Assembly: GCA_963719515.1 (NCBI GenBank)
Contig: CAVRCJ010000006.1
Span: 368,029-432,028 of the forward strand
DNA: 64,000 nucleotides
Direction of reading: 5' to 3'
Source: an uncultured cyanobacterium
Lineage (GTDB): Bacteria; Cyanobacteriota; Cyanobacteriia; CAKZMO01
Shown here piece after piece: positions 1,480 to 40,690 of this stretch (positions are counted from its first letter, which is position 1; the number at the start of each line of letters is the position of its first letter). The notes beneath the pieces are model-generated. The model was not told where the DNA came from. It saw only the letters and a program-made list of their open reading frames with translations, and ran no database searches. The translations under genes were made by a program, and so were the position numbers.

Positions 1480-2803
1480 TTACGGAGAGGTTTTCTGTAG
1501 TGAATCTGAGGAATCTTGTTCGGCGCACGGATAGTGCTGGTCAAGCTGCAGGAGCGTGTTCAGCAAGACGTTAGTGCCGGCGATGCAGTGCTCTGGCAGG
1601 GTGTACTCGGTTTCAGCGTGGCTGATGCCCCCCTGACTGGGAACAAAAATCATGCCCATATCCGTGAGGCTGGCCATGATCTGCGCGTCGTGGCTGGCGC
1701 GGCTGGGCAGCGGGCAGGCGCTTAGGCCGATGTCGCCGCACACCTGGGCGATCGCATTATAAATGTGGGAACTGACGGGGACGGGCTCGTTGCGCAGCTG
1801 GGGCGCGACGCGAATCTCGGTTTGGGTGGCGGCGGCGATCGCCCCGGCCTCGTCTTCCAGCATGGCCGCCATCCGGTCTAAAGACTCGTTAGACAAGTCC
1901 CGCATGTCCACCGTCAGCTCGACCCGACCCGGCACCGTATTCGCTACGTTGGGCGTCAGCGTCATCGAGCCGACCGTGGCCACCTGGTCCCCGCTCACCA
2001 TCTCGTCGCACAGGCAGGCAATTCGGTTCACCGCTAGGGTCATTTCCGCCGCTGCCACCAGCGCGTCCCGCCGCATGCTCATGGGGGTGGTGCCCGCGTG
2101 GCTGGCCTGGCCCACCACCGTAATCAGAAACCGTCGCTGCCCCACGATTCCGGTGACTAGACCTACGGGTACGCCCCGCTGCCTCTAGCACCGGACCTTG
2201 CTCGACATGGAGCTCTACGAAAGCGGCCAAGCTTCCCGGCGGACGCTGCGCGGTGGACAGCACGGCCCAGCTGCCGCCAATGGCATCAACGCTGGGCTGG
2301 ATGGGGGCGTAGTTGGGGTGCTCGTAGTGGGCCGGATCGGGGCTGGCCCGTCCCGCCATGGCCTTGCTGCCAATCATCGTCCGCTCTTCATCGGCAAAGA
2401 TAATCACCTCCAGGGGGTGACCGAGCTGCTTGCCCTGTTCGTGCAGCGTGCGCACTACTTCTAGCCCAGCCAGCACGCCATAGGTGCCGTCGTAAATTCC
2501 CGCCTTGGGGACGGTGTCGAGGTGAGAGCCGGTGGCCAGGGCTGGGGCTTTGGGGTAGCGCCCTGGATAGCGGCCTATTATGTTACCGGCAGCATCCGTG
2601 ACGGTACGCATCCCCGCCGCCCGCATCCAGTCTCCCACCACCTGCCGCGCCTGCCGGTCTTCAGGGCCAAAAGCCAACCGCCGCACGCCGCCTTCCGGCA
2701 GCGCGCCAATCGCGCCAATTTCGGCGATCGCCTGCATGAGGCGCTCACCGTTCACGGCCATCGCTGCGGTGGGGGGTTTGGTAGGTAAAGTATCTTTCAT
2801 CAA
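1480..2803 (-). pseudogene. M20 family amidohydrolase (allantoate amidohydrolase / N-carbamoyl-L-amino-acid hydrolase type), split by a +1 frameshift in a C4 homopolymer at 2175-2178
   Basis: The N-terminal ORF (1889-2803) ends ...VELHVEQGPVLEAAG and then runs into an out-of-frame tail. The +1 frame continues GVPVGLVTGIVGQRRFLITVVGQASHAGTTPM..., which is the canonical continuation of this family. Removing one C from cccc at 2175-2178 restores a single ORF. Confidence 0.7.
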
Positions 2804-3168: not shown

Positions 3169-3480
3169 TTACCGACGCGGTAGCGGTATCCGTTTGGTGA
3201 GGATGCGCATGACGTCGGTGGGGGTGAGGCCGCGCAGAACGCCGTTGGTGTTGGTCATGGGGATGGGCTGTGACCATTCGTGGGGTTCGGCGTAGCCGAG
3301 CAGATGTAGTCGGTCGCGGCAGTCGTTGACGGCATAGAGGGAGCCAAGGGCGATCAGCCGCAGGGCGTGGTAGCCGGTCTCGCTTTCGCCGATTAGGTAG
3401 TCGCCGGTTTTGGGGTCGATGTTTAGGCGTGCGAGAGCGTCCTGACGGGCGTCAGGATTACGGGTTATTTCGTAGGTCAT
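3169..3480 (-). CDS. hypothetical protein
   Basis: This is the ORF 3169-3639. The likely start is the second ATG (MTYEITRN), which is preceded by GGAGA. I recognise no domain. Confidence 0.4.
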   Translation of the reverse strand: MTYEITRNPDARQDALARLNIDPKTGDYLIGESETGYHALRLIALGSLYAVNDCRDRLHLLGYAEPHEWSQPIPMTNTNGVLRGLTPTDVMRILTKRIPLPRR

Positions 3481-3991
3481 TTGCGGGTTGTCTCCCATGT
3501 ATTGGATGTAGGAAAGACAACCCAAACGTCTAGCCACCCCGCGAGCATAAGGCGAGGTGGCTACTCTGGGATAAAATTCCCAGTAGCGCCTGCCGCCTCG
3601 GACGGTGGGGGTTAGTCCCCTGGTTGTGTTTGGCGGCACTTCCAGGGGGCGCTAAATATTTGGGTAGTCAGAAGGACAGCTTGTGATTTGCGTCCATGGC
3701 TTGGCATCGTAGCGAAGTTTTGCGTATGGCGCAACCGTGTTGGGAAATTTTTGTGGGATGGGTGTGGGGTGGTGGGCTTTGTGGCTGAGTTGGAGGGCGA
3801 TGGTTTGGGGCGATCGGTTGGGGCGATCGCTGCAATTGAAGGAAATCTTTCGTAATCTGTGGCTAAGTCATTGAGAATTTCGCTTTACACCGCAGGGCTG
3901 TGTCTGGAATTGTTCACTTGTACACTGAAGCAGATACAGGTGGTCTCGGGCTTATTAGCCTTCGAGCAATAGATGCGTATCAATTCGATAG

Positions 3992-4031
3992 ACAGCTGTG
4001 TAATTGCTGGATTCTGCAATTACACAGCTGT
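3992..4031. promoter_or_regulatory. Perfect 16-bp inverted repeat acagctgtgtaattgc / gcaattacacagctgt with an 8-nt loop, followed by a short T-run. It is a candidate operator or intrinsic terminator 48 nt upstream of the TIR gene.
   Basis: I read the sequence directly and the arms are exact reverse complements. Confidence 0.6.
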
Positions 4032-4079
4032 GCTTTTCAGAAAAACTAATTTCAAGTCAATTCTATAGCGCTCAGGTTC

Positions 4080-4925
4080 ATGCTTAGAACAAAAATCTTT
4101 ATTTCGTATCGGCGAAAAGATAGTCTTCGAGAAGCAAGCGATATACATAATGCTCTGGCATTGGAGTTTGGCAAAGATTCTGTTTTCAAGGACGAAGCAA
4201 AGATCGAGCCTGGAGAAAAGTTCAAAAAAGTAATAGACAACGCATTAGATGACTGCAAGGTCTTGCTTGCCATTGTTGGAAAAAAGTGGTTAACGGAGAC
4301 AGATTCAGATGGAATCACTCGACGACTCGACAGAGAAGATGACTTTGTACGCATGGAGATAGAAAAAGCTTTAGATCGCGGTATACCAATTGTCCCAGTT
4401 CTATTAGATGGTGTAGACGTTCCCCAGAAGATTCAGTTGCCGGCGATATTACAGCCTTTGTTCGACAGCCAGAGTATAAAGATTCGTCACGCTTCTACTT
4501 TCGAATCTGATATGGCTAGATTGGTGACAAGAGTTGCGAGATATATTGGCCATCACGTGACCACAGACAAATGGGGAAAAGTATGTGTATTTGACGAGTC
4601 AGCAGGAACAAGAGTATGGATTTACCCCATAGACGACAATGATATAGAAAATGAGCCCCCCTGCAAATCAGTTCTTGAGTGGCCTCCCGAAATAGAGGGG
4701 CTTGTTGGCAGAAGTAGTGAAGTTGAAAGAGCGGTAGATTTAGTAAAAGACAAGCAGTCAATAGAACTTTATGGAGATTCAGGAATAGGAAAGACTGCTA
4801 TTTTGAGTTACCTGAGTAGCGTCTTAGGAGGTAAAAACTCATATTATAGAGACAAGTTTGGTGAAGACTTCCATTTTGATATTCGCTTTAGAAATGGAAT
4901 TTTATGCAAAATTGGGACGCTCTAG
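4080..4925 (+). CDS. TIR-domain (TIR_2-like) protein fused to a STAND/NB-ARC-type P-loop; the ORF ends 45 aa after the P-loop
   Basis: The N-terminus KIFISYRRKDS...WL...RRLDREDDFVRMEIEKALDRGIPIVPVLLDG matches the bacterial TIR_2 pattern. LVGRSSEVERAVDLVKDKQSIELYGDSGIGKTAILSYL is a STAND-style GxxGxGKT P-loop. The region is visibly AT-rich. Confidence 0.6.
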   Translation: MLRTKIFISYRRKDSLREASDIHNALALEFGKDSVFKDEAKIEPGEKFKKVIDNALDDCKVLLAIVGKKWLTETDSDGITRRLDREDDFVRMEIEKALDRGIPIVPVLLDGVDVPQKIQLPAILQPLFDSQSIKIRHASTFESDMARLVTRVARYIGHHVTTDKWGKVCVFDESAGTRVWIYPIDDNDIENEPPCKSVLEWPPEIEGLVGRSSEVERAVDLVKDKQSIELYGDSGIGKTAILSYLSSVLGGKNSYYRDKFGEDFHFDIRFRNGILCKIGTL

Positions 4926-6183
4926 ATCACCCACTAGCCGCTTAGATCACCTGTCCACTTTTTTGAGATTGGCTTTGTTTAGTGGCATTATAGTAAAATC
5001 CACTCATTTGCAGCATTTAGCACTGACAAATTTACCCACTACAAAAGAGGCAGATCTACAGGTAATAGAAGCTATTTTGAGCAGTTTAATACAAAGCAAT
5101 ATCATAAGATCTAGTAAAGCTAATAGAAATGATGAAGGCAGTATTTATTACAGAATGGGACCAGATCTAGCAGTTTTTTTGCGGCAATCATGGAACTTAG
5201 ATGATTGCCTTCGAAAATCGCTTCACTATTTTGAAGACTATCTAGAAGAGCAATCACACATAACAGGTTACGATAAACTAGAAGAATGCGACCTTGTTGC
5301 ATTCTTGCTAGAGCTAGCTAAAGACAACAAGGAACTTCGAGGAGTATCTTTAAGATTAATCAAGAAATTATCAAGAGCAATGCCTATTATAGGGTGGTGG
5401 GACTCATGGCACGAGCTTCTGAACATTATGCTTGAGTCTGCGAGGAGCCTCGGAGATGAATCTGCAGAAGCATTTGCTATGCATGAACTAGGAACGCATG
5501 CATTGTGCTTAGATGATAACGAAGCTGCAGAAGCTTACTTAAATGATGCTCGTGATATACGAACAAGGCTTGGGGACGAAGCAGTCCTGAACTTCACGAA
5601 CCATAACTTGCAGCAGCTTCGGCAAATATCGACTTTAGCTCCTTCTCCTAAACCAGACCCTTCTCCTAAACCAGATCCCATTCTCAGCCCGGCACGCCCT
5701 AAACGGGGTACGCCAGCACAGCTTTTGGTTGGTGGTGCTATCACTACTATTGGAGCAATTTTACTTATCTCAACAGTCAATTCGTCTCAGAATAATTCAT
5801 CCACACAGGGTGAACTTGGAACTATAGAAGCATCGCTTGTATCTGTAGCAGATGGCTATTTTGGAAATACAAGAGTATGTGCGCAGTCTGTCAACGATTA
5901 CAATTCACTAGATTGTGTAGATGTTGAAGCTGGTACAGTGCCAAGAACTATTGAACTAAATATTCAGCCAGGTGAGTATTTTGTATTTGCTACTGATGAA
6001 GAGCTTACCGTCGGCGGCCTACTTTATACTCAATATCATGTAAATCAGAGCGATTTTGACGCTGAACCGCTCTCTGTTAGTGTCGCTGCCAATGAAAGAG
6101 TCACAGATATTTTCCTTTCTAATGAGGGGCCTTGTTTCAGAGATCCTAAACCTGAATACTGTGTTGACCCGTTTAAGCAATAG
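4858..6183 (+). CDS. Continuation ORF in the +1 frame relative to the TIR gene. It has a helical/TPR-like region, a PSPKPD linker, one transmembrane helix and a Cys-containing C-terminal domain. It is either a separate gene or the frameshifted remainder of the TIR-STAND protein.
   Basis: This frame is open from 4828 and overlaps the frame-0 ORF by about 100 nt. It contains TPR-like helices (AEAFAMHELGTHALCLDDNEAAEAYLNDARDIRTRLGDEA), the TM helix LLVGGAITTIGAILLISTV and a 130-aa C-terminal domain with 5 Cys. I see no Walker B. Confidence 0.5.
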   Translation: MVKTSILIFALEMEFYAKLGRSRSPTSRLDHLSTFLRLALFSGIIVKSTHLQHLALTNLPTTKEADLQVIEAILSSLIQSNIIRSSKANRNDEGSIYYRMGPDLAVFLRQSWNLDDCLRKSLHYFEDYLEEQSHITGYDKLEECDLVAFLLELAKDNKELRGVSLRLIKKLSRAMPIIGWWDSWHELLNIMLESARSLGDESAEAFAMHELGTHALCLDDNEAAEAYLNDARDIRTRLGDEAVLNFTNHNLQQLRQISTLAPSPKPDPSPKPDPILSPARPKRGTPAQLLVGGAITTIGAILLISTVNSSQNNSSTQGELGTIEASLVSVADGYFGNTRVCAQSVNDYNSLDCVDVEAGTVPRTIELNIQPGEYFVFATDEELTVGGLLYTQYHVNQSDFDAEPLSVSVAANERVTDIFLSNEGPCFRDPKPEYCVDPFKQ

Positions 6184-6398
6184 ATAATGTGACCGTATAA
6201 GCCTTTGGAGAAAGGCTGCGATCAGACTTCCTGAGTGTAGAAGTGTAATCATTCTGAAAGAGCTGCACAATGTTAATGATTTTGCAAAGCCCCTGACTAA
6301 TCTTTAATGCATAGTTACTAAGGGGCCACAACCACTCACAGGAGCATAACCCAGCCCCCCTTCCTCCAAGACTGCACTTTGACATAATCTAAAGAGAC

Positions 6399-6700
6399 AT
6401 GGAAACGATCTCCGTTATTGTGCTGGTCAAAAACCGAAAGCGTCACTTACGCCATCTCCTGATAGGCGTACAGCAGCTCAACCCTCCCCCCAAAGGCAGC
6501 GCAATTGAAACAGTAGTCGTTCACATGAACGAGTCGCCCCAGCCGCCCCCAGACTTTTTCACAGGAAACTACGTCACAGCTGAAATCCACAGCTCAGCGA
6601 CCAAGCTGCCCCTAGCGCAGGCAAGAAACCAGGGCGCGAAAACCGCCAGCGGCGATCGCCTCATCTTTTTAGACGTCGACTGCATGACCTTACCCCGAGA
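6399..6700 (+). pseudogene. Family-2 glycosyltransferase, N-terminal fragment truncated by an IS insertion
   Basis: ISVIVLVKNRKRHLRHLL and LIFLDVDCM (DxD) are GT2 hallmarks. The reading frame runs into the IS3 left end. Confidence 0.5.
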
Positions 6701-7233
6701 AAGTGGACATTCCAGAAGAGAGGATAAACAAGGAGAATGTTCACATGAGTCAGAAACCACGTCGAAAATTTACAGCGGAGCAGAAAGCGGAAGCGGTCCG
6801 CATTGTTGAGCAGTCAGGTAAACCTATCAGCCGAGTGGCAAAGGAGATGGGGTTAACCGAAAGCGCATTGCGCAACTGGGTGAAGCAATCGAAGGTTGAC
6901 CGCCAGCAGTCTCCTGGGGGGTCGCTAATTTCTAGTGAGCGGGAGGAGCTCAATACCTTGCGCCGAGAGCTCAAGCGGGTTCGGATGGAACGAGATTTTC
7001 TAAAAAAGGCGGCGACCTTCTTTGCCAAGGAAAGCTCAAACCCTATGAGCTGATTGGCGCGGAGAAGGAGAATTTCCCAATTGACATGATGTGCCAAGTG
7101 CTAGGCGTTTCGAGGAGTGGCTACTATGCCTGGTGTCAGCACAGGGCGTCCGCCAGAGAAAAGGAGAATGAGATTTTGTCTGAGCAGATTCAACAGATTT
7201 ATAGAAGTCGCCGTAAAACCCCTCCGCTTTAGG
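6690..7233 (+). mobile_element. IS3-family insertion sequence, 5' fragment. It holds orfA (6745-7053) and the start of orfB in the -1 frame, and is truncated at about 7230.
   Basis: OrfA MSQKPRRKFTAEQKAEAVRIVEQSGKPISRVAKEMGLTESALRNWVKQ has an HTH and leucine zipper, and ends FFAKE at the frameshift window. The -1 frame reads KLKPYELIGAEKENFPIDMMCQVLGVSRSGYYAW, which is a typical OrfB N-terminus, then stops. Confidence 0.75.
6745..7053 (+). CDS. IS3-family transposase OrfA
   Basis: See the IS3 fragment. The ORF is complete at 103 aa. Confidence 0.75.
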   Translation: MSQKPRRKFTAEQKAEAVRIVEQSGKPISRVAKEMGLTESALRNWVKQSKVDRQQSPGGSLISSEREELNTLRRELKRVRMERDFLKKAATFFAKESSNPMS

Positions 7234-7236
7234 TGT

Positions 7237-8640
7237 GGGATATAAGGCGGTGAGCGTGGCGAATATATTCACACTTTACACGGCGATTGTTAGACTGTAA
7301 GTATGGTTCAAAAGGCTTACCGCTATCGCTTCTATCCTACTGCTGAACAAGAACAACTCTTGCGCCGGACAATGGGGTGTACTCGCCTGGTTTACAACCG
7401 CGCTTTGGCGGCAAGGACTGAGGCTTGGTACCAGAAGCAAGAGCGCGTCGGTTACGCTCAAACCTCGTCGATGCTGACGCAGTGGAAAAAAGAGGAGGGC
7501 CTCGAATTTCTTACTGAGGTTAGCTCGGTTCCCCTTCAGCAGGGGCTGAGGCATCTGCAGACCGCCTTCACTAACTTCTTCGCCGGTCGGGCTAAGTATC
7601 CCAACTTCAAAAAGAAGCGCAGCGGCGGTAGCGCAGAGTTTACCAAGGCGGCGTTCAAGTTTAGAGAGGGTCAGGTGTACTTGGCCAAGTGCTCTAAACC
7701 TCTGCCCATTCGATGGTCTAGGGCGCTTCCGAAAGATGCCGCACCATCGACCATCACGGTCAAGCTGACGCCTGCAGGCCGGTGGTTTGTGTCGCTGTTG
7801 GTGGAGGTAGACATTGAGCCACTGCCGGTATCGCCTAACAAAGTTGGCCTGGACTTGGGCATCACCAGTCTGCTCACGCTGAGCACCGGCGAGAAGATTG
7901 CCAACCCCAAGGGCTTCAGGGCCAAGTACCGTAAGCTACGAAAAGCTCTAAAGGCCCTTAGCCGCAAGCAAAAGGGCTCGAACAACCGATACAAAGCGCG
8001 GCTCAGGGTGGCCAGGGTCCACGCCGAGATAGCCGATGCCCGCAAAGACCTGCTTCCCTTCGGGACGCTTCGCGAACACAAGCTGACAACCCGGCTGGTG
8101 CGCGAAAACCAAGCGATCGCCGTCGAAGACTTAGCAGTGGGGAACATGGTCCGAAATCACAAATTGGCGCGCGCCATCAGTGATGCAAGCTGGGGGGAAC
8201 TGGTGCGGCAGCTTACCTACAAGTGCGAATGGTACGGGCGGGAGCTGGTTAAGATAGACCGATGGTTCCCTAGCTCTAAGCGCTGTGGCAGCTGCGGCCA
8301 TGTCGTAGATAAGCTGCCGTTGAACGTTCGAGAGTGGCAGTGCCCTGAGTGCGACGTGAAGCACGATAGGGACGTAAACGCTGCTGTAAACGTATTGGCC
8401 GCTGGTCTAGCGGTGTCAGTCTGTGGAGCGACCGTAAGACCTGTTGGCGAAGCCTGCGCTTCGCGCATAGAGAGCAAATCTCGGAAGGCAGGTGCTACGA
8501 AGCAGAAAAGTCTTGGAGCAATCCAAGAATCCCACGTGCTTTAGCCGTGGGAGTAGTCAAATCTAAGTAAATTTACTTTACAGGTTCTTATCGCTACAGC
8601 AGGCGAAAAGGCTCTATCTTGTAGTCATAGGTGCTCACCC
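7237..8640 (+). mobile_element. IS200/IS605-family (IS1341-like, tnpB-only) element inserted into IS3 orfB
   Basis: A left-end imperfect hairpin gtgtgggatata...aatatattcacac lies at about 7237-7278. The tnpB ORF follows. A right-end perfect palindrome agtaaatttact sits at about 8568-8585. Confidence 0.6.
7303..8544 (+). CDS. tnpB: TnpB (IS200/IS605 OrfB; RuvC-like RNA-guided nuclease with a C-terminal zinc finger)
   Basis: The N-terminus YRYRFYPTAEQEQLLRRTMGCTRLVYNRAL is typical. VGLDLGITSLLTLSTGE holds RuvC-I, IAVEDL holds RuvC-II and CGSCGH...CPECDVKHDRDVNAAVN is the zinc finger plus RuvC-III. The ORF is intact at 413 aa. Confidence 0.9.
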   Translation: MVQKAYRYRFYPTAEQEQLLRRTMGCTRLVYNRALAARTEAWYQKQERVGYAQTSSMLTQWKKEEGLEFLTEVSSVPLQQGLRHLQTAFTNFFAGRAKYPNFKKKRSGGSAEFTKAAFKFREGQVYLAKCSKPLPIRWSRALPKDAAPSTITVKLTPAGRWFVSLLVEVDIEPLPVSPNKVGLDLGITSLLTLSTGEKIANPKGFRAKYRKLRKALKALSRKQKGSNNRYKARLRVARVHAEIADARKDLLPFGTLREHKLTTRLVRENQAIAVEDLAVGNMVRNHKLARAISDASWGELVRQLTYKCEWYGRELVKIDRWFPSSKRCGSCGHVVDKLPLNVREWQCPECDVKHDRDVNAAVNVLAAGLAVSVCGATVRPVGEACASRIESKSRKAGATKQKSLGAIQESHVL

Positions 8641-9249: not shown

Positions 9250-11181
9250 CTAGTTGATGCCGTCCGGCACAGCAACGCCCGGTAGGGCCTCTAGCTCCGC
9301 TCCGCTCAGCGGACTGCCGCCAAACTGGTCATATTGCCGCGCCAGCGCTCCCGTAAACGCCGCGTTGTAGTCGAGCGCGACCTCGTTGCGAATGTAGTCG
9401 CTGCGGTCGTCTCGGTAGTCCCCATCGCTGGGAGACGCTGGCCCGCCAACCAATGCCCCATAGAGTATATTGGCGTTTGGCGCACCGCTGTTGAAGCTAT
9501 CCCAGCCGCCGCCGTGGGAGCCTCTGTGGTGAGGCTGCTGCGGAGAGCTCTCTCCAAAGCCCACCATGTAGCTAAAGCTGCTGGGGTTCTCTCCCAATAG
9601 ATAATCGATTTGGCGATCGCTGAAGTCGCTGTAGCGCTGGTTAGGGTCATTGACTGTATCACCATACACCCCGGCCAAGAACGCCGTGTTGGCGCTCAGA
9701 CGCAGCGACCCCCATTGGTCTAGCCAAGCTAAGCCGCCGTCCGTTTGAGCAACCCCCGCGCCGCTGTCGTCGCTCCACCAGTCCAGCCAACCCTCAACGT
9801 CCTGGCGATAGCGGGGGTTATCGCTTTCCTGCGCCAGCAGCACCGCCGTACCGTAAGCCTTGTCGTCCCAGGTGTGGGTGTAGCGAGCCAGCCCTTGGTA
9901 GGCGGCTTCGGCCTTGTCCAGATAGGCTTGGTCTCCTGTCGCTTTGTAGAGCCACGTTGCGCCCCAGGCCAGCTCGTCTTGATATCCACTCCAAGAGTTG
10001 TAAAAGTCTTTGGCGTTGTCGATGGCGTCAGAATACTTGCCGCGATGCTCATCGGCAAAGGCATAGAGCTGTTTGGCGTTCTCCAGCAGGCGGTCGGCGT
10101 AGGCCGAGTCGCTTTGGCGGAACAGCAGAGAGGCCGATGCCAGTGCGGCTGCCGACTCACCCGCCAGATCTGACCCCGGGTTGGCCGCATCAATCTTGAA
10201 GGCAGGGCGGTCCATAGTCATCTCTTCCGCTGCCCCCCAGTAAGCATGGTCGGCGTTGCCGTCTCCCACCTGGCCCCAAAAAGCTTGGGTCTTACCCCCC
10301 TCGGTAATGTGGGCTTTCAAGATGTAGTCTGTCCCCCAGCGCACGGCCTCCATCAGCTCGCCCAACTGCCCGCTAGATTGGTAGGCCTCTTCATACTCCA
10401 ATGCGCCCCAGCTCAGCAGCGTCATCGAGGCCGCCATAGGAAACCCAAATTTCACGTGGTCCCCCGCGTCGTAGTAGCCGCCGGTGAGATCAACGCCAAC
10501 ATCAGCGCCATCATCCAGCGCTGAATCGCCGCGCCACTCAATGCGGCTGTCGTCAGGAAGGGGGCCAGAGCGCTGCGCCTCGTAGAATAGCAGGGACTTC
10601 TGCAGCGCCTCGCCGTAGTTAAAGTCTCCGGTAGCTGTGTCAGCGCTGCTGCCGGAATCGCTGACAGAACCATCATCAGCACTACCCACGTCGTCGCTAG
10701 CGCTCTCACGCCCGGCGTCCGGGCCATCACTTGAGTCGCTGCCCACATCACCCGAGGCGGGCGCAGCGCCATCGCCCGTTTCCTGCTCCGCTGCGGGCAC
10801 CTCCTCCGACGGCGTTGAGGCCGGACCGGAATCGGCGGCTCCACTATCGCTGTTGCCACCAGATGGGGTAGGCGTGGCCTCACTATTGACGGCGATCGCC
10901 GCTAGCTCTCCCGGCGACCCTGCTCCATTAAAGCCAATGGAGACCTCACCACCAGCGGCAATCGTGCCATTCCAGCTAGCGTTCTCGATGGTGTAGCGGT
11001 AGCCTCCCGGTACCGGCTTGCGAGCGACGATTTGAGCGTTCCAAATATGAGCAATCTCAAACGGGGCTTCAAATTCAATCGTCCAGTTGTCTAGGGCAGA
11101 CGGCGAAGCAAGCACGAGCTGCCCCGTGAATCCGCTGCCCCAGTCATTCTCAACGGAAAAGGTAACGTCTGCGGCTGCCAT
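9250..11181 (-). CDS. GH9 endoglucanase with an N-terminal CBM2 carbohydrate-binding module and an Asp/Ser/Gly-rich linker. There is no N-terminal signal peptide.
   Basis: The CBM2 pattern WGSGFTGQL...WNAQIV...NASWNGTIAAGGEVSIGFNG is present. GH9 motifs include DAGDHVKFGFPMA. An in-frame TAG lies 5 codons upstream of the ATG and an AGAGGA RBS precedes it. Confidence 0.85.
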   Translation of the reverse strand: MAAADVTFSVENDWGSGFTGQLVLASPSALDNWTIEFEAPFEIAHIWNAQIVARKPVPGGYRYTIENASWNGTIAAGGEVSIGFNGAGSPGELAAIAVNSEATPTPSGGNSDSGAADSGPASTPSEEVPAAEQETGDGAAPASGDVGSDSSDGPDAGRESASDDVGSADDGSVSDSGSSADTATGDFNYGEALQKSLLFYEAQRSGPLPDDSRIEWRGDSALDDGADVGVDLTGGYYDAGDHVKFGFPMAASMTLLSWGALEYEEAYQSSGQLGELMEAVRWGTDYILKAHITEGGKTQAFWGQVGDGNADHAYWGAAEEMTMDRPAFKIDAANPGSDLAGESAAALASASLLFRQSDSAYADRLLENAKQLYAFADEHRGKYSDAIDNAKDFYNSWSGYQDELAWGATWLYKATGDQAYLDKAEAAYQGLARYTHTWDDKAYGTAVLLAQESDNPRYRQDVEGWLDWWSDDSGAGVAQTDGGLAWLDQWGSLRLSANTAFLAGVYGDTVNDPNQRYSDFSDRQIDYLLGENPSSFSYMVGFGESSPQQPHHRGSHGGGWDSFNSGAPNANILYGALVGGPASPSDGDYRDDRSDYIRNEVALDYNAAFTGALARQYDQFGGSPLSGAELEALPGVAVPDGIN

Positions 11182-21581: not shown

Positions 21582-22541
21582 TCACAGCGCCGCCATGTAC
21601 TCCCGCAAATCTTGACGCTTGCCTCGCAGCCGCCGCAGGGCGTCCTGCTGAATCTGGCGAACCCGCTCTCGGCTAACGTCTAGCTCATCGCCAATTTTTG
21701 CCAGAGTGAGCACGCGTCCGTCCCGGAGTCCAAACCTGAGGGTGAGGACCTCCTGCTGCTGGGGGGTAAGATCGCTCATTAGATCGGCTAGATCTTGTTT
21801 TAGATGCCGGTTTACGACAATATCCTCGGGCGAGGCACCATCATCAGGTAGCAGATCCCCCAGGTGATTGTTATCGTTGTCGCCAATGGTCAGATCTAGA
21901 GACAGGGGTTGGCGAGCCCGATCGAGGTAGTAGCGGACCTTGTCAGGAGAGATGTCCGTTTCTTGCGATAGCTCAGCCACCGTAGCCGATCGCCCTAATC
22001 GCTGCGAGACTTGACGTTGAGCCTTCTTGATTTTATTCAGCTGCTCGACCACATGTATCGGAAGGCGAATAGTACGACTTTGCTCTGCGATCGCTCGGGT
22101 GATGGCCTGTCGAATCCACCAGTAGGCGTAGGTGGAGAATCGATAGCCCTTGGAGGGGTCAAACTTCTCTACACCTCGGTAGAGCCCCAGAGTGCCCTCC
22201 TGAATCAAATCAAGAAACTCTAAGTTGGATTTGATGTATTTCTTGGCAATGGAAACCACTAGCCGGAGGTTGGCCCGCACCATCTTCACTTTGGCGCGCT
22301 TACCTTCACGCAGCGATCGCCGCAGCTGGTTGACTGAAAGGTCAGCAGCCTCGGCCCAGTCGCAGAGCTCTAGTTCGCTCGCTTCTGTTGACTCCAAAAG
22401 GCGATCGCGCACCGCTTCCAAGTCCACTAAACACCGCACCTGCTTACCCAAAATAATTTCTTGCTCATGGGTCAGCAAAGGAACGCGTCCAATCTCTTCC
22501 AAATAGGCGCGGACTGGGTCAATACGGCGAGTAACAGTCAT
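21582..22541 (-). CDS. RNA polymerase sigma-70 factor, group 2 (RpoD-like)
   Basis: Region 2 [21 protein letters not shown], the LIQEGTLGL motif, the [10 protein letters not shown] region 2.4 and a region 4 HTH are present. Confidence 0.9.
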
Positions 22542-23039
22542 AGTAATAATGAAACACCTCAGCAATCAAAAAGTATCAAATTCAGAGATAGCGTATATTC
22601 CATAAGTCGCATGCATCCACCGTCAGCTTTTGAAGCAGCTTAACTTATGGGGCAGCAAGACCAACCACAAGAGACAAAGCCGCTATAGAGCTCAATCTCG
22701 ACCTACGAGCAGTGGACTGCTTGCTAATTAACCCTCATGAAACCTAAATCATCACGCCGTGCAGTGCCAGAGACGCTGCACGGCCACACCGGCAGAAAAA
22801 ACAATCCGTACAAAACGTAGTCCGCACGAATCAGTATAGAACTGCTGCCTGCATACGCTCATGTGCAACGGCATTGCACGCAATAAACATCCCCTCTCGT
22901 CTCTCCATCATAGCATGAAATGCCAATTTTGAACAGCATTTTATGACGGTTGAACGCAGGAAGCCCCGAACTACGGACGAGAAGTTTAGGTGAGGTAGCA
23001 GAATCTAAACCCTCGGAGATAGCTCTTTCCTCGCACTTT

Positions 23040-23087
23040 AAAAGCCTATTAGACCGTATCCGTAAAAGCCTATTAGACCGTATCCGT
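23040..23087. repeat. Perfect 2 x 24-bp tandem repeat (aaaagcctattagaccgtatccgt) in a 760-bp intergenic region
   Basis: I read it directly. Confidence 0.9.
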
Positions 23088-23328
23088 CAGGTCCCCTTTT
23101 ACGGCACAGGTGAAAACGACAGGGTCAGTCTGCGCCGCCGCACTGTCGACTCAGGTCAAGAGTATTGCACTTACAGAGTCTACCTCTAGAACGATGACAG
23201 CATGATGTTGAAATTAAGCTGGTGATTTCTCGACTTATTTTTCAGAATGTTTGCTACTTTTTTAGAGGGAACCCGCTTGAATCATTTTCAGAATTCGAGC
23301 CTACTTTTATTCCCTTAACGCTGTTTCG

Positions 23329-23757
23329 TTGCAAAGGAATTCATTGATGACGCTTCAAAGCTATTGCTCGAATTTAAAAAAGAAGGCGATCGCTGCACTC
23401 AGCTTAGCTAGTCTGGTGTTGTGCTTAGCCGCCCTACCCGCAGGCCAAGCGCAAGCTGCCCCTCAGCAAGCTGGACAAAATACCTACTTCTCCGACATCT
23501 ATACCGGTCAGGTCCAGTCGCTAGATCAGTTTGACTCCTCACAGCTCGACGCCATTGCGGCTTGCCTGCCCGAGGAAATTAGCGCCAACAACGAAGACAT
23601 CGGCGATCGCGTCGCCCGTGCTTTCGGCGAGATGGGGAACGATTTTCTCGAGCGTGCGTTTAATCTCAAGGACAACCCAGAACTTAGCGATGCGGAGCTA
23701 GCGTTTCGCGACTGCTTGCAGGGTAAAGGGGTCAAGTTTACTTCTCCTGTCCGGTAG
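23329..23757 (+). CDS. hypothetical secreted protein
   Basis: A signal peptide (AIAALSLASLVLCLAALPAGQAQA) is present. I recognise no domain. Confidence 0.45.
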   Translation: MQRNSLMTLQSYCSNLKKKAIAALSLASLVLCLAALPAGQAQAAPQQAGQNTYFSDIYTGQVQSLDQFDSSQLDAIAACLPEEISANNEDIGDRVARAFGEMGNDFLERAFNLKDNPELSDAELAFRDCLQGKGVKFTSPVR

Positions 23758-35009: not shown

Positions 35010-36395
35010 CTAGCTCAACTGCGAGTAGGCGCTAGAGGGCAGCGCAGGTGCTGTCCTCGCCGGGCGTTTTCGAGACCTAGAGGTAAGAGGTCGCAGCGCA
35101 ATTCCCGATAGGCTTCCGCAGGCCAAAACATAGATGGGGTTGATCATGGCGTTGAGCAAGCAGTCGATGGTGTACATCACCACAGCCATAGATAACGCCG
35201 CTAAAGGCGCGTATTCTGGCTTCATCCACAGCTTTGGTGGACAGCGCTGCATGAGCACGGTTACGGGGGGGAGGAGCAGCAGCGCCATCATGCTGACCAG
35301 GCCGACAGCTCCCTTCTCTCCGTACTCAATAATCCACAAGCTATCAGGAATAGTGAGCATTTTGCCGTTTTCGTCAAGCAGAAGGGACCTGCCCCAGCCC
35401 CCCCAGCCCAAGAGGGGCCGTTCCCGGGCGATATCCGCCAGAATCTCTTCATTGTTAAATCTAAAGGCGAGGGACTGCACGCGCTCTGCGGGTAAGACGT
35501 TTGATAATCCTTCTACAATTTGATCGGTTACATAGGCATCGGTTTGAGAACTGATGAATAGGTAAGCGACTATGGTCAGAGCTAGAAGAAGCACCGGCAG
35601 GGCCGTCCGTATTTGCCAGCAGAGGTACAGCAGGACAAATCCAAAGGCGAGCAAGAAGTAAGCGCCTGTGGATTTGCACAGCAGAAACGTCACAACCAGT
35701 GCGATCGCCAGCCAGCTTATAGGGATATTGCTGACCTTTTTTAAAGCCCCGCTTTTCCACAGCCACAGCCCAATCAGGCTAGCTGCCATCATAAAGGCTG
35801 CAACCGCAAGACCGTGCTTCATAAACACGGTTGGTCTAAAGCCTCCCCAGCGAACGTTTTGGCCGAATGAGGAGTGGGCTCTGAAGCCATAAAGCATGAG
35901 GTGGAGCTGGGGGCTCATTCGAACCTCATAGAGGCAGAACGGGATGTACGCCAGTCCGCCCAAAAAGATACCCGTAGCGAGCTGCTGAGCGCCCTCTAAG
36001 TTGGCGAGATAGATTCGGCCCAAAAAGTAGGGAATTCCCCAAGTCACCACCTGGATCAAAACCGCTGATACCCCGTCGTATAGCCCTAGCCCATTGCTTA
36101 AAGATGTGGCAATAGGACAAATACAAAAGATAAGCGCTGGAACATCAATCCAGCTAAAGCGGAATGCGCTGAACCGTTTGACGTCAAAAACGAAAGTTGC
36201 CAGCAAAATTCCATAGGAGGTTGCTGACATTTTCGTCAGGTCAGGAATGCCAGGCAAGACAATTTGCGCCTCGGGCAAGAATAGCCAAGCAATGATAAAG
36301 CTCATGACGACGGCTTTTTGTGCTGGAACCCGCTTGAATAGGTAAAGCACGAAGGGAATCCACCCATATAGGGCAATGTAGGCGATTGGTGACAT
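35010..36395 (-). CDS. O-antigen ligase / Wzy-like polysaccharide polymerase family membrane protein
   Basis: This is a polytopic membrane protein with about 10-12 TM helices and a large loop, in a Wzx/Wzy gene context. Confidence 0.65.
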   Translation of the reverse strand: MSPIAYIALYGWIPFVLYLFKRVPAQKAVVMSFIIAWLFLPEAQIVLPGIPDLTKMSATSYGILLATFVFDVKRFSAFRFSWIDVPALIFCICPIATSLSNGLGLYDGVSAVLIQVVTWGIPYFLGRIYLANLEGAQQLATGIFLGGLAYIPFCLYEVRMSPQLHLMLYGFRAHSSFGQNVRWGGFRPTVFMKHGLAVAAFMMAASLIGLWLWKSGALKKVSNIPISWLAIALVVTFLLCKSTGAYFLLAFGFVLLYLCWQIRTALPVLLLALTIVAYLFISSQTDAYVTDQIVEGLSNVLPAERVQSLAFRFNNEEILADIARERPLLGWGGWGRSLLLDENGKMLTIPDSLWIIEYGEKGAVGLVSMMALLLLPPVTVLMQRCPPKLWMKPEYAPLAALSMAVVMYTIDCLLNAMINPIYVLACGSLSGIALRPLTSRSRKRPARTAPALPSSAYSQLS

Positions 36396-36417
36396 GGCAT
36401 TCTACTCAAACTAGGGA

Positions 36418-37323
36418 TTAGCTAGACCAGCTAGACAGATCTCGATTAATGAAGTCAGCAAGAACTTTGTTGGGTTCAGAAAAATGTTCGAGCAGCTTTT
36501 GACGTGTCTCAGGCTTCATGGGCGGAGCGGTATAGGTCTGTCGCACCTGCTTACCGTATGACGACTTTTGAAGCAGTTGGTAGACGCCGTCGCGCCAAGA
36601 CTGTGGCACAGCCGCTGCGGCCGTTGCCAGCAGAGGAACTTTTCTGAGCGGAGCAGTAATCCGCCCTCGAAGCGTGTCCTCGAACACCTGTTTACCCTGA
36701 TTTGCGATGACCGGTCCCTCGTCAGCAAAGTCGAAGCCGTCATCAACGCCAATAAACTGGCAGACTGATTTCAGCGTCTTGTACGGGGCGTCGATCATAT
36801 CTTCGGAAAGCAAAAATAGAAATCTTTCTTTGGGAAAAAGGGCTGTGTAGCGCTCGATTTGCATCATGTAGTTACTGCCGTCAATAGCTTCACTGGTGCG
36901 CTCAAGATATTCCTCAAATGTCTCGTCTACGCCAGAACGGTGGCGATGCACGTAGTACGAATAGGCGCGGTTAACGGGATGACGCATGAGGTAGATCAGC
37001 TTCACCTCAGGGAGATGCTCCGCCATTCGCTCGGCGGCGTGGGGATATCTAGGCCATTTGGCGTAGTCTGTAGAAGCTTCGCCGCAGGCCTGGTCTTCCG
37101 TCGCTAGCTCAAATAAAGATGCGTAGTACTCTAGTCCCTTTTCGTATTTTTCGTCTATCCCAAAAAAGTTGGGTTCTTTGTCGTCAGGAATAAAACAGCC
37201 TGGATGCTTGCGAAGATAGGTTGCTAGAGTCGTTGTCCCCGACTTGGCCGCCCCAATGATTAGAAATTTAGGTAGATTCATCTGCCCTTTATTACTCATA
37301 ACTTTATAACTCATACAAACCAA
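36418..37323 (-). CDS. sulfotransferase family protein
   Basis: The 5'-PSB P-loop PKFLIIGAAKSGTTTL and the 3'-PB region (RHPVNRAYS) are present. Confidence 0.75.
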   Translation of the reverse strand: MVCMSYKVMSNKGQMNLPKFLIIGAAKSGTTTLATYLRKHPGCFIPDDKEPNFFGIDEKYEKGLEYYASLFELATEDQACGEASTDYAKWPRYPHAAERMAEHLPEVKLIYLMRHPVNRAYSYYVHRHRSGVDETFEEYLERTSEAIDGSNYMMQIERYTALFPKERFLFLLSEDMIDAPYKTLKSVCQFIGVDDGFDFADEGPVIANQGKQVFEDTLRGRITAPLRKVPLLATAAAAVPQSWRDGVYQLLQKSSYGKQVRQTYTAPPMKPETRQKLLEHFSEPNKVLADFINRDLSSWSS

Positions 37324-37359
37324 GCTCAGCTTAGCGGAATAGCTTATCGATAGCTGACA

Positions 37360-38703
37360 CTATAGAAACACTTCTCTAATAGATAGCTCAAATCCTAGAA
37401 GATAACGACATAGGGCAGCAAGAGCAACCGCCGAAAGCATCAGAAATGTGGCTAAAAGATCCTGTTTCACAAACGAGACCTTTTCTCGGCAAAGGCCATA
37501 AGCTGCAACGCTGTAGGGCAATATATCGTTCAGCGCGATCGCAATAATTGCACCCGGCAGTCCAAAAGCTTTATAAGATAGAGGCACGGCAACTATCATG
37601 TAAATGAGCTTGAAATTGTATCCAACCGCGCCATAAACGGACTGGCCCACCGCCAGCAGAACCGCATTGGAAAGCTGAAACAAAATCATGGGCCAAATTC
37701 CAACGGCCAAAAGGGGCAACATCCAGGCCGCATTTCTGTAGTTCTCGTCATACAGAACGAGGATGATATAGTCTCCTACGTTAAAGAGCAGCGCCACGCC
37801 TAACGCCATGCCAATCAAGAGTAACCAGCGCTTCTTCTCTAGCTTTTCTCGCAATACGGCTCTAGGCTGGCTAGCCTGTTTTGAGACGACTGGAAAGACA
37901 ACCTGGGTCGTCAATCGGCTGACGACCTGAGCCGGCAGATCGGCGAGGGTAAATGCGACGGTGTATACCCCCAGCATCTCGAATGAGAATAGCTTACCCA
38001 AGATAAGTCGGTCCGACTGCGACGCCAAAAAGGTCATTGCGGTGGAGACAAAAATCCACTTTCCAAATGAGAAAATTTCTTTTGCGGCTTCCGCATCCCA
38101 GGTAAACCGATGCTTTAGGTCTGGAATGAGCCGGTGACTCCAGATCATTTTGATGGTTGTGGAAACAATATTGCCCCCCACCAACGCCCAAACAGTCGGG
38201 CTGATCAAAGCCCAAGCCACCATAACGCTCAGAGATATGGCCTGAGCCACAAACTCAAAGACCGTTATCTTGCCAAAATCTAGTCTCTTTTTTAGAACAT
38301 GCAGCGATGCGGAATAAAATCCCTGAATAATGGTTGTCAGACTAACGACCGGAATTAACCAAAGTAAGCGATCATCTTCATAGAATGAAGCCACTGGCCA
38401 AGCGATAATCAGACTACAGGCCCAAAGTCCAAAGCCTCGAATGGCTTGAATTGTCCAAGCTGTGTTGACAAATACAATGTCATCACCACGCTTGTTCTGG
38501 ATGATGCTGGGCCCAATACCGATGTCAGAGAATAGAACAAGACCTATCACGAAGGTGTTGATCAAGCTCATCAATCCGAAATACTCCGGGACAAGCAGGC
38601 GCGTCAAAATGATGTTGCCGGCGAATCTCAGCCCTTGACTCGCACCGTAGCCGATGAAAGTCCAAGCAGCTCCATGTATAGCTTTCTTTTCGAGGGACAC
38701 CAT
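37360..38703 (-). CDS. Wzx-type oligosaccharide flippase (polysaccharide biosynthesis protein, MOP superfamily)
   Basis: The ORF is 447 aa with about 12-14 TM helices and the typical N-terminus KAIHGAAWTFIGYGASQGLRFAGNIILTRLL. Confidence 0.8.
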   Translation of the reverse strand: MVSLEKKAIHGAAWTFIGYGASQGLRFAGNIILTRLLVPEYFGLMSLINTFVIGLVLFSDIGIGPSIIQNKRGDDIVFVNTAWTIQAIRGFGLWACSLIIAWPVASFYEDDRLLWLIPVVSLTTIIQGFYSASLHVLKKRLDFGKITVFEFVAQAISLSVMVAWALISPTVWALVGGNIVSTTIKMIWSHRLIPDLKHRFTWDAEAAKEIFSFGKWIFVSTAMTFLASQSDRLILGKLFSFEMLGVYTVAFTLADLPAQVVSRLTTQVVFPVVSKQASQPRAVLREKLEKKRWLLLIGMALGVALLFNVGDYIILVLYDENYRNAAWMLPLLAVGIWPMILFQLSNAVLLAVGQSVYGAVGYNFKLIYMIVAVPLSYKAFGLPGAIIAIALNDILPYSVAAYGLCREKVSFVKQDLLATFLMLSAVALAALCRYLLGFELSIREVFL

Positions 38704-38776
38704 AAACGTGAATCAGTGATTGGGTCTTGAGATTGGCAAGGGTGCGTTTAAAGGCTAGAAAAACCGGGAGAGACGG

Positions 38777-40039
38777 CTAAACAGAAGCTTGACTTGAATC
38801 TCTTAGACCAAACGAGCCGGTGACAGCAGACTGCGGCATTTGTTTTTCTGAAAACAGCTCCTTTAAGACGAGTGCTTCAGCAGTGGCGTCGTGATAGCTC
38901 CGAATCCGTGCCTTCCCTTGCTCCCCCATCGTTTCGAGGGTCTCTCTAGATGACTCTAGCGCAGCTCTAACCGCCTCTGCGAGTTTTTCAATAGCGCCGG
39001 GAGGAACGAGCCATCCACAGCAGCCAGGCTCGACTAGTTCCGGAATACCGGCGACGTAGGTGCTGACAACCGGTCGCCCGAGAGCCAGCGACTCCATAAT
39101 GACAACGGGTAAACCTTCTGCAAAACTGGGTAAAACTGAAATCTTTGAGCTAACTATATAGTCCTTAACTTCTGAGCTACTCGCCCAGCCGGTGATTGTA
39201 ACTTGATCCGTTAGGTTGAGGTCTCGGATGCGGTCTTCGATGGGCGATCGCAGAGGACCATCGCCAACAAGCACTAGGCTGAACGGAACCTGCTCCTTCG
39301 CGAGCAGTCCAGCGGCCTCAATCAGCATCAAGTGCCCCTTCTGCTCAGAAAGTCTCCCGACACAAACTAGCTGGGGCGTATCGGGTAGATCGTGCGTAGG
39401 GGCAGAGAGGTACTCTTGATCGACGCCGCAGCGAACAATTTTTATCTTGGACCAGTGCTCGAAGCTGCACCAGCGATAGAGCTGACTACGCCCAAATGAG
39501 CTGATGGCCACCACAAACTTAGCTCGCTCTATCTTTTGGGTCAGGCCAATCCCCCCTACCCGATCAAACTCCTCTGGGCCATGGACCGTAAAGCTGTAGG
39601 GGATGCCGCTCAGCTCGCTGGCCAGCATCGCCACAGTTGCCGAGTTAGTGCCAAAATGGGCGTGCAGGTGGGTCACACCGTCAGCTATCAGCCAGTTTGC
39701 CAGGGTGCAGGCCTCAACAAGATAGATGAGGTGGTACAGGATGCCGCGATCGCCCTGCTGTCCCTGCTTAAGCGCTAGCGTCAGCGCTGCGACAAAAGCG
39801 ACGGGATGAGTGAGTAGCGCTTTAACAAAGCTCCAAAGTAAAATATACGGTGGCTGGCTCAAGACAACCTTTGTCTTTTGGAGTTCTTGCTTGTCAGCCT
39901 CGTCGACAAGTTCTCCACTGCAAGAGCGGATTGAAAACCGCATCACTGCTACGCCGTGGCTCTCTAGGCTCAGAATTTCTCTGCGAATAAAGCTGTGGCT
40001 GACTTTGGGATATTGATTGACTAGATACGCAACGCTAGA
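38777..40039 (-). CDS. family-4 glycosyltransferase (WcaL-like)
   Basis: EGLPVVIMESLALGRPVVSTYVAGIPELV is present. I chose a shorter start. Confidence 0.75.
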   Translation of the reverse strand, partial: SSVAYLVNQYPKVSHSFIRREILSLESHGVAVMRFSIRSCSGELVDEADKQELQKTKVVLSQPPYILLWSFVKALLTHPVAFVAALTLALKQGQQGDRGILYHLIYLVEACTLANWLIADGVTHLHAHFGTNSATVAMLASELSGIPYSFTVHGPEEFDRVGGIGLTQKIERAKFVVAISSFGRSQLYRWCSFEHWSKIKIVRCGVDQEYLSAPTHDLPDTPQLVCVGRLSEQKGHLMLIEAAGLLAKEQVPFSLVLVGDGPLRSPIEDRIRDLNLTDQVTITGWASSSEVKDYIVSSKISVLPSFAEGLPVVIMESLALGRPVVSTYVAGIPELVEPGCCGWLVPPGAIEKLAEAVRAALESSRETLETMGEQGKARIRSYHDATAEALVLKELFSEKQMPQSAVTGSFGLRDSSQASV

Positions 40040-40690
40040 CATATATAATTTAGATAGAGAAAATAAGGTAAACGAGTAGTAAGATTCAATATTGAAATCG
40101 GCGATATCGCGGTAAGCCGCGTCAGCGAGTCGCAACCATGACCAACCCTTATCTGAGACCCGAGCTGTGGGTCTAGTCTAGTTAACCCCGGCTAAAGGTT
40201 GTCAAAACATTGGTTCTGAGAGCATCGATTTTACTCAGCTATCCACAAGCACTCTATAGGCTAGAGGGCCTGCCACCTCTAAAGGTAGGTTAGGACGTGT
40301 AAAGCTCGACTATTTCCCGCCAGACAATCATCGACTCTTCATTATTCCTAAAATAGCTTCAAATTTTAATAAAATTCAGCAGGCTGGCATAATCCTGCCA
40401 AGTGCTTAGCCAGAGAAGGTTTGAGGCAACACCATCTGCTTCCACGAGCCTCTATTCGCCTGCAAAGGACATCTCCTTTGGAGATTAATTTGCAAATCCT
40501 TTATGTTTCACTGAGTTTCCCTGGCTGAAGCTTTACAACTTGGACGAAGTTAGGCGCAAATTGTTTCGGGGTCCACAGGCATACTTTAGGTATATTTAAC
40601 GAAGAGCGTCACGCGACTTTCAGCCTTAAATAGAGATTAGGGCAAAAAAAGGCAGCGGCCTAGAGAAAAGATACTTCATGCCTCAACAAT

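Follow-up and report, generated by a model that had tools for sequence, protein, structure and literature searches.

An AT-rich island with two overlapping open reading frames

The stretch of DNA analyzed here, referred to as the window, comprises 64,000 nucleotides (nt) of contig CAVRCJ010000006.1 (positions 368,029 to 432,028) from an uncultured cyanobacterium of the GTDB lineage CAKZMO01 (assembly GCA_963719515.1). It contains an AT-rich island in which the only open reading frames (ORFs) are two that overlap on the plus strand (Table 1). ORF1 encodes a TIR head followed by the P-loop of a STAND NTPase, and ORF2, in a different frame, covers the C-terminal two thirds of the gene from which both descend.

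The island (3880 to 6390) has a GC content of 41.7%, versus 55.7% for the remaining window. In 400-nt windows the GC fraction ranges from 0.36 to 0.46 across positions ∼3800 to 6400 and from ∼0.55 to 0.67 in the flanks, and the GC content at third codon positions (GC3) is 0.32 to 0.37 in ORF1 and ORF2 and ∼0.65 in the neighboring host genes. None of the 81 HIP1 (GCGATCGC) sites of the window falls inside the island, and the gap between positions 3823 and 6652 (2,829 nt) is the second largest in the window. The original prediction for this DNA had described an AT-rich island that lacks HIP1 sites, sits next to insertion sequence debris, and contains only TIR-bearing ORFs. All of this was reproduced, including the debris, in which IS3 and TnpB were recognized.

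Table 1 Features of the island and its right flank in window coordinates
Feature	Position (nt)	Strand	Basis
AT-rich, HIP1-free island, likely foreign	3880–6390	.	GC, GC3, HIP1 gap
Perfect inverted repeat (hairpin), 16-nt arms, 8-nt loop	3992–4031	+	100% complementary arms
ORF1, 281 amino acids (aa), frame 0: TIR head, linker, pre-P-loop, Walker A, unalignable tail, stop	4080–4925	+	ORF listing, Pfam
TIR domain, ORF1 aa 6–147	4095–4520	+	Pfam TIR_2, AlphaFold, Foldseek
Surviving N-terminal NB-ARC-type piece: pre-P-loop 'GLvgRssEve' and Walker A GDSGIGKT	4653–4820	+	family hidden Markov model (HMM)
Lesion zone, 145 nt for 189 profile positions; holds the frame overlap 4828–4925 and the frame-0 stop	4821–4965	+	family HMM
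ORF2, 441 aa from TTG, frame 1; C-terminal two thirds of the same ancestral gene	4858–6183	+	homology search
Winged-helix, helical, and TPR-like module	4966–5676	+	family HMM
Single transmembrane helix, ORF2 aa 287–307	5716–5778	+	hydropathy
C-terminal domain with four cysteines, inferred outside the cytoplasm	5809–6180	+	identity to P0039 and P0065
Mobile-element debris, right flank	6399–8544	+	Pfam/NCBIfam profile matches
GT2 glycosyltransferase fragment	6399–6809	+	profile match
IS3 transposase remnant, cut at about 7232	6703–7232	+	profile positions 1–86 and 106–148 of 369
TnpB, apparently intact, 413 aa; helix-turn-helix, OrfB_IS605, and Cas12f1-like TNB domains	7303–8544	+	profile matches

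ORF1 opens with a TIR domain and ends in a P-loop

The exact ORF1 protein is on record in a public assembly (NCBI/ENA) and forms a singleton cluster. Pfam TIR_2 (PF13676) matched it with an E value of 7.1e-13 (49.5 bits, cut-off 28) over positions 1 to 120 of the 122 in the profile. The AlphaFold model, for which 31 TIR sequences made up the input alignment, has a predicted local distance difference test score (pLDDT) above 90 over residues ∼10 to 155 and below 50 in the tail (residues 192 to 281). A Foldseek comparison of the modeled TIR domain with the PDB ranked the SARM1 TIR domain best (target TM-score of 0.89, root mean square deviation of 1.8 Å, 27% identity), with AbTir and plant TIRs in the next places; SARM1 was also the sole solved family reached from this domain by sequence (E = 2.5e-5). 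The head of ORF1 is a genuine TIR domain with its fold intact, and the anticipated TIR_2-style opening of the ORF was borne out.

Residue E93 of ORF1 ('DFVRMEIEKAL', nt 4356 to 4358) is invariant across the 31 TIR sequences. It is aligned with the glutamate of the SARM1 segment 'KDWVHKEIV' (KDWVHKEIVTAL), which we take to be the catalytic E642. These sequence features suggest that the TIR domain of ORF1 may have NADase activity.

From the TIR domain to the P-loop the frame is continuous, and homology of the linker to an NB-ARC-type family starts at residue ∼170. The Walker A motif GDSGIGKT occupies residues 232 to 239 (nt 4773 to 4796). Positions 16 to 71 of an HMM of this family, built from the 66 relatives that were also measured for the spacing described below, matched nt 4653 to 4820 in frame 0 (E = 9e-15). 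The STAND/NB-ARC P-loop proposed for the C-terminal end of ORF1 is indeed there. The match of AAA_16 to ORF1 is limited to profile positions 2 to 51, the P-loop end of that model. No short TIR proteins sharing the ORF1 tail were found.

ORF1 and ORF2 are pieces of one gene

Frame 0 is closed by a stop codon at 4923 to 4925 and frame 1 is open from 4828, which agrees with the previously noted +1 switch of frame in the overlap 4828 to 4925. A HMMER search of 1.84 billion representatives with ORF2 gave 1,434 relatives at E ≤ 1e-3, none of them below 1e-30. About 75 of the best 150 relatives also matched ORF1 residues ∼193 to 246, near their own N-termini, and none of these 150 matched the TIR part of ORF1. 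A search with the conceptual fusion of both ORFs returned mostly TIR-only proteins, together with three intact TIR-less proteins of 810 to 1013 aa (P0025, P0028, and P0031). Each of the three is similar to the window in the P-loop context ('EFYGDSGIGKTAILRYLAHH') as well as in the part encoded by ORF2 ('ALHQLGTRALCL...NL'), and their alignment with the window is colinear. The tail of ORF1 and ORF2 are therefore found in the same relatives and in the same order, as expected from descent from one family gene, and ORF1 and ORF2 are pieces of one gene. A search for homologs in which both ORFs are fused had been proposed as a check, and these relatives carry the counterparts of the ORF1 tail and of ORF2, without TIR, in one protein.

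The ORF2 part is well preserved. Positions 261 to 476 of the family HMM matched nt 4966 to 5676 in frame 1 (E = 1.3e-51), and the family-invariant residues W..W, 'HELGTHALCL', and 'HNL' are retained; the only Pfam match in ORF2 is a weak one to TPR_12. The hydropathy profile peaks at 2.16 over ORF2 residues 286 to 308, and upstream of the transmembrane helix the linker is basic and rich in proline (PSPKPDPSPKPDP...ARPKRG). The C-terminal domain has no match in Pfam or NCBIfam; it shows an identity of 45% with P0039 and of 42% with P0065. Because P0039, a 154-aa protein, has a hydrophobic signal-like N-terminal segment, this domain of ORF2 presumably lies outside the cytoplasm.

The segment missing between the two pieces

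The stretch between the end of Walker A and the equivalent of ORF2 position 110 is never shorter than 239 aa in the 66 relatives (median, 248 aa) and measures 123 aa in the window. Nothing in any frame corresponds to family HMM positions 72 to 260, the part of the profile that contains the 'GLP' motif, the 'GHPLRILQ' helical subdomain, and Walker B ('ALILLDD'). This is in line with the earlier observation that no Walker B is recognizable after the P-loop. The core is contiguous in 126 relatives. The original prediction had also called the downstream part short. This applies to the NTPase module alone; the parts that follow it (winged helix, TPR-like module, transmembrane helix, and C-terminal domain) are of full length.

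The 145 nt of the lesion zone showed no significant similarity in any frame, either in short-peptide HMM searches or in shuffle-controlled local alignments. A trace in frame 0 ('D.F...F..D.RF') is marginal, being equalled by 8 to 20 of 500 shuffles. The segment 'ILCKIGTL', placed at Walker B by a MAFFT alignment, was rejected as such (z = −1.2).

Outside this zone there is no second stop or frameshift in either ORF, and both the catalytic-type glutamate of the TIR domain and the family-invariant residues are kept. At the composition of the island, runs of 441 and 281 open codons would arise by chance with probabilities of 2e-13 and 9e-9, respectively. The lack of a second lesion therefore points to either recent inactivation or continued use of the pieces.

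An apparently membrane-anchored family of NB-ARC-type STAND proteins

Members of the family share an architecture of a variable head, NB-ARC, winged helix, TPR-like module, transmembrane helix, and extracytoplasmic domain. Pfam NB-ARC was matched by 18 of the 21 relatives scanned, with weaker matches to NACHT, AAA_22, and nSTAND6. A scan of genome collections recovered 64 family loci with identities of no more than ∼35%. The family occurs in Nostocales, Elainellales, Leptolyngbya, Anaerolineae (Chloroflexota), Vicinamibacterales (Acidobacteriota), and Actinomycetota. Its heads include a fused CHAT protease (P0151), zinc ribbons in some members, and, in most, the short motif 'SGQVAVGNxILQIGxVHGGVVNV'. 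A transmembrane-like segment directly follows the TPR-like module in 70 of 71 relatives (from the set P0025, P0028, P0031, and P0039 to P0188), at the same place as in ORF2. In many of them it is followed by Ig-like repeats of the ASH/Cep192/HYDIN type or by a Cys-containing domain. From these sequences, the entire STAND family appears to be membrane anchored.

In four Nostocales loci (L002, L003, L010, and L032) a gene for a CHAT (caspase-like) protease lies directly upstream of the STAND gene; in L010 the CHAT gene spans 5053 to 5913 and the STAND gene 5923 to 8187. The last ∼25 residues of the upstream CHAT protein (e.g., 'TQTAGDNAVMFGNIGQVGNINL') are 54 to 71% identical to the first ∼25 residues of the STAND protein in these loci. 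The matching motifs are of the form 'GDNAxxFGxIGQVGxINL', and L010 is the locus of Nostoc sp. NIES-4103. Judged by their sequences, such gene pairs look like amyloid-motif effector/NLR pairs.

A metagenome scan with ORF1 gave one weak P-loop match only, a scan of viral contigs gave no family relatives, and a search with a mixed profile of TIR and core returned TIR-only proteins plus the already known P0028 and P0031. P0033, which combines TIR with NB-ARC, was rejected as a family member, as it shares only generic NB-ARC similarity.

The locus as a probable broken gene of likely horizontal origin

In all likelihood the locus is a decaying pseudogene, the remnant of a TIR-headed, membrane-anchored NB-ARC NLR-like gene, and not a compact defense system. 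Most simply, the lesion would be explained by a single out-of-frame internal deletion of about 375 to 420 nt. Such a deletion, of a length that is not a multiple of three, would have removed about 125 to 140 codons, beginning directly behind Walker A and reaching as far as the winged helix. It would have cost the gene Walker B and the helical ARC-like subdomain and split it into ORF1, left with TIR and a Walker A stub, and ORF2, left with the winged helix, the TPR-like module, the transmembrane helix, and the C-terminal domain. Since Walker B and the oligomerization core are lost and the gene lies in two frames, the switch encoded in the window would be inoperable. The lesion is probably recent, given that no second stop or frameshift has accumulated and that the invariant residues and the TIR glutamate are kept.

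The way in which the intact protein may have worked can be outlined from the established biology of the STAND/NLR switch and of TIR NADases. It would have consisted of a cytoplasmic effector head, an NB-ARC-type NTPase, a winged-helix and helical module, a TPR-like module, a transmembrane helix, and an extracytoplasmic domain. By analogy, a cue would be sensed by the TPR module, the external domain, or both, releasing the NB-ARC switch. Nucleotide exchange by NB-ARC, followed by oligomerization, would cluster the SARM1-like TIR heads, and these would cleave NAD+, so that the cell would be arrested or killed.

Horizontal acquisition is indicated by the base composition, by the lack of HIP1 sites, and by the insertion sequence debris next to the island. 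The GC content of family genes fits that of their own hosts (0.355 for the gene versus 0.341 for the locus in Anabaena; 0.631 versus 0.597 in Anaerolineae). The window gene, at 0.41 in a background of 0.56, falls inside the range of the Nostocales copies (0.35 to 0.46). The island was likely acquired from a low-GC, Nostocales-like cyanobacterium.

Several observations weigh against a simple broken gene. No close intact ortholog was found in the protein, genome, metagenome, and viral collections searched, and as a consequence the breakpoints are placed no more finely than nt 4821 to 4965 and a single event is assumed. Neither the protein searches nor those of genome collections found a TIR-headed member of this exact family; the case for a native TIR-STAND junction is built on the continuous frame and the linker homology. 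Selection that still acts on one piece or on both would likewise be compatible with the long, clean ORFs. In addition, the neighboring M20 peptidase gene is frameshifted too, and some assembly indel error is possible.

Other explanations were weighed against the same data. ORF1 could be a working stand-alone TIR protein (a free NADase, a signal-producing effector, or a mild toxin), with ORF2 perhaps a separate membrane protein. ORF1 does have an intact TIR fold with the catalytic-type E93, an ATG and a stop of its own, and weak similarity to the ThsB-type TIR models of Thoeris; it is called as a protein in the public assembly, and both ORFs are without further lesions. Clean ORFs are, however, equally expected after a recent lesion, and the Thoeris score is far under the cut-off (47.7 versus 220 bits), with no ThsA-like partner in the island. 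Moreover, the last ∼90 residues of ORF1 are an orphan P-loop stub that is predicted to be disordered (pLDDT below 50) and is absent from other short TIR proteins. TIR NADases generally need induced oligomerization, which the NB-ARC core would have provided, and the loss of this core counts further against a free-standing ORF1, which we consider unlikely. The window could also hold the one TIR-headed example seen to date in a large class of transmembrane NLR-like receptors that has apparently gone undescribed, with a variable domain outside and an effector of the TIR, CHAT, or amyloid type inside. The split pieces would then still be in use, with ORF1 acting as a free-standing TIR NADase and ORF2 serving as the stub of a membrane sensor, an arrangement that we regard as decidedly improbable.

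Two further proposals concern the change of frame itself. Programmed +1 frameshifting in the overlap would yield a compact TIR-STAND protein from frames that overlap by 98 nt, are shifted by +1, and have flanks that are both homologous to one protein family. The fused product would nevertheless still be without Walker B and the entire helical subdomain. None of the 66 relatives has fewer than 239 aa in the interval and no compact relatives were found; the overlap has no significant homology in either frame, and a slippery site has no support from conservation, as no close homolog exists. We judge such frameshifting to be very unlikely. The original prediction had left the choice between a new compact architecture and a decaying remnant, and the spacing in the relatives, together with their contiguous core, speaks for the remnant and against the compact form. 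An indel error of sequencing or assembly in a gene that is in reality continuous is given very little credence as well. The adjacent M20 peptidase gene is likewise split, beside a CCC run, and the overlap contains short homopolymers (AAAAA at 4833, TTTT at 4874 and 4900), but one correction would restore the frame and not the ∼125 to 140 missing codons. The same ORF1 is also present in the public assembly, though this is probably derived from the same data. A screen of the whole window for split genes had too much noise to reveal whether indels are a general problem.

Relation to known immune-type systems

NB-ARC/TPR proteins with all-in-one TIR2 and CHAT heads have been reported from filamentous Cyanobacteria, Actinobacteria, and Chloroflexi, as has the pairing of effector and NLR motifs in bacterial amyloid signaling (BASS) (Dyrka et al. 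2020, bioRxiv 10.1101/2020.01.06.895854). The family resembles these NB-ARC/TPR NLR-like proteins of multicellular bacteria in its taxa, in the order of an NB-ARC-type core and a TPR-like module, and in its interchangeable heads, and the window copy corresponds to the all-in-one form with a TIR_2 head. The window gene is a pseudogenized TIR-headed member of this known class, from which it differs by the internal truncation and the frameshift. The family as a whole adds a transmembrane helix and extracytoplasmic domains, and no such anchor appears in the text of Dyrka et al. 2020. Compared with a BASS pair, the window copy has TIR in place of the N-terminal motif and no upstream effector gene.

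The TIR domain of ORF1 is like that of SARM1 in structure, in sequence, and in E93. The two differ in context, which is an ARM-SAM octamer in SARM1 and a STAND protein in the window. Cyanobacterial STAND proteins likened to Apaf-1, with caspase-like heads, have also been mentioned (Nature 2026, PMC13581612). An NB-ARC-type core together with a caspase-like (CHAT) head or partner is common to them and to relatives in the family. Their head is a protease, whereas that of the window copy is TIR.

The original prediction had pictured a TIR-STAND antiviral gene of the Avs/bNACHT kind. A TIR domain fused to a STAND P-loop on a foreign island stands, and so does the general logic shared with Avs and bNACHT, in which a STAND NTPase lies between an effector at the N-terminus, in some cases TIR, and a sensor at the C-terminus. 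The label itself was rejected. None of the PADLOC STAND defense models matched ORF1, ORF2, or the intact P0025, P0028, and P0031, and the relatives match NB-ARC better than NACHT. To our knowledge, Avs and bNACHT proteins are without a transmembrane anchor and extracytoplasmic domains, whereas the family has both. An antiviral role would be hypothetical.

PADLOC gave weak matches of ThsB-type TIR models to ORF1 (ThsB, E = 3e-6) and nothing for ORF2, and the NCBIfam model ThcB4 matched ORF1 residues 5 to 65 (E = 1e-12, 47.7 bits, cut-off 220). Thoeris was rejected on the basis of scores far below the cut-offs and of the lack of a ThsA partner or any other gene in the island. The likeness to ThsB is weak and lies at the level of the TIR domain, which in ORF1 is in frame with a STAND P-loop.

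Taken as a remnant, the locus itself is a gene that no longer works, on a small island of foreign DNA, and it illustrates that TIR and a P-loop alone do not make a working defense system. It would be a clean case of an immune-type gene recently acquired and, probably, recently inactivated in a cyanobacterium. A TIR head once joined to the NB-ARC/TPR core, beside CHAT and amyloid-type heads, supports free swapping of heads. The membrane-anchored family is a more interesting lead than the locus in the window. It has more than 1,400 representatives at 50% identity, and with its transmembrane helix and external Ig-like or Cys-containing domains it could sense extracellular cues. The intact members of interest are those of Nostoc sp. 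NIES-4103 and Anabaena sp. UHCC 0451, which adjoin CHAT effectors with matching tail motifs.

Surroundings of the island

A distance of 49 nt separates the hairpin listed in Table 1 from the start of ORF1, which lies downstream. No second copy occurs in the window, where 0.02 matches are expected by chance; the hairpin has a folding free energy of −28.4 kcal/mol (z = −6.0) and is followed by a weak U-tract. It may serve as an operator or be what is left of a terminator. Promoter and terminator scans gave matches at chance level. At the edges of the island, tRNA and Rfam scans revealed no feature marking an integration site, and no flanking direct repeats were found around it.

The mobile-element debris on the right flank is nested. 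Elsewhere in the window, the GC fraction in 1-kb windows also drops below 0.50 at ∼22500 to 23500 and ∼35500 to 40500, which could mark additional foreign segments.

On the left side, the M20/M28-type peptidase gene (1480 to 2803, minus strand) consists of two overlapping ORFs, split by an indel at about 2165 to 2175 beside the CCC run. It is either a second pseudogene or the product of an assembly indel. Between this gene and the island lies a 156-aa ORF (3169 to 3639, minus strand) with a host-like GC3 of 0.70 and no match in Pfam or NCBIfam. Beyond the debris, positions 9250 to 11181 (minus strand) encode a GH9 glycoside hydrolase of 643 aa (E = 1e-154) with an N-terminal CBM2 cellulose-binding domain, of which an identical copy occurs on a Logan contig from run ERR12040027.

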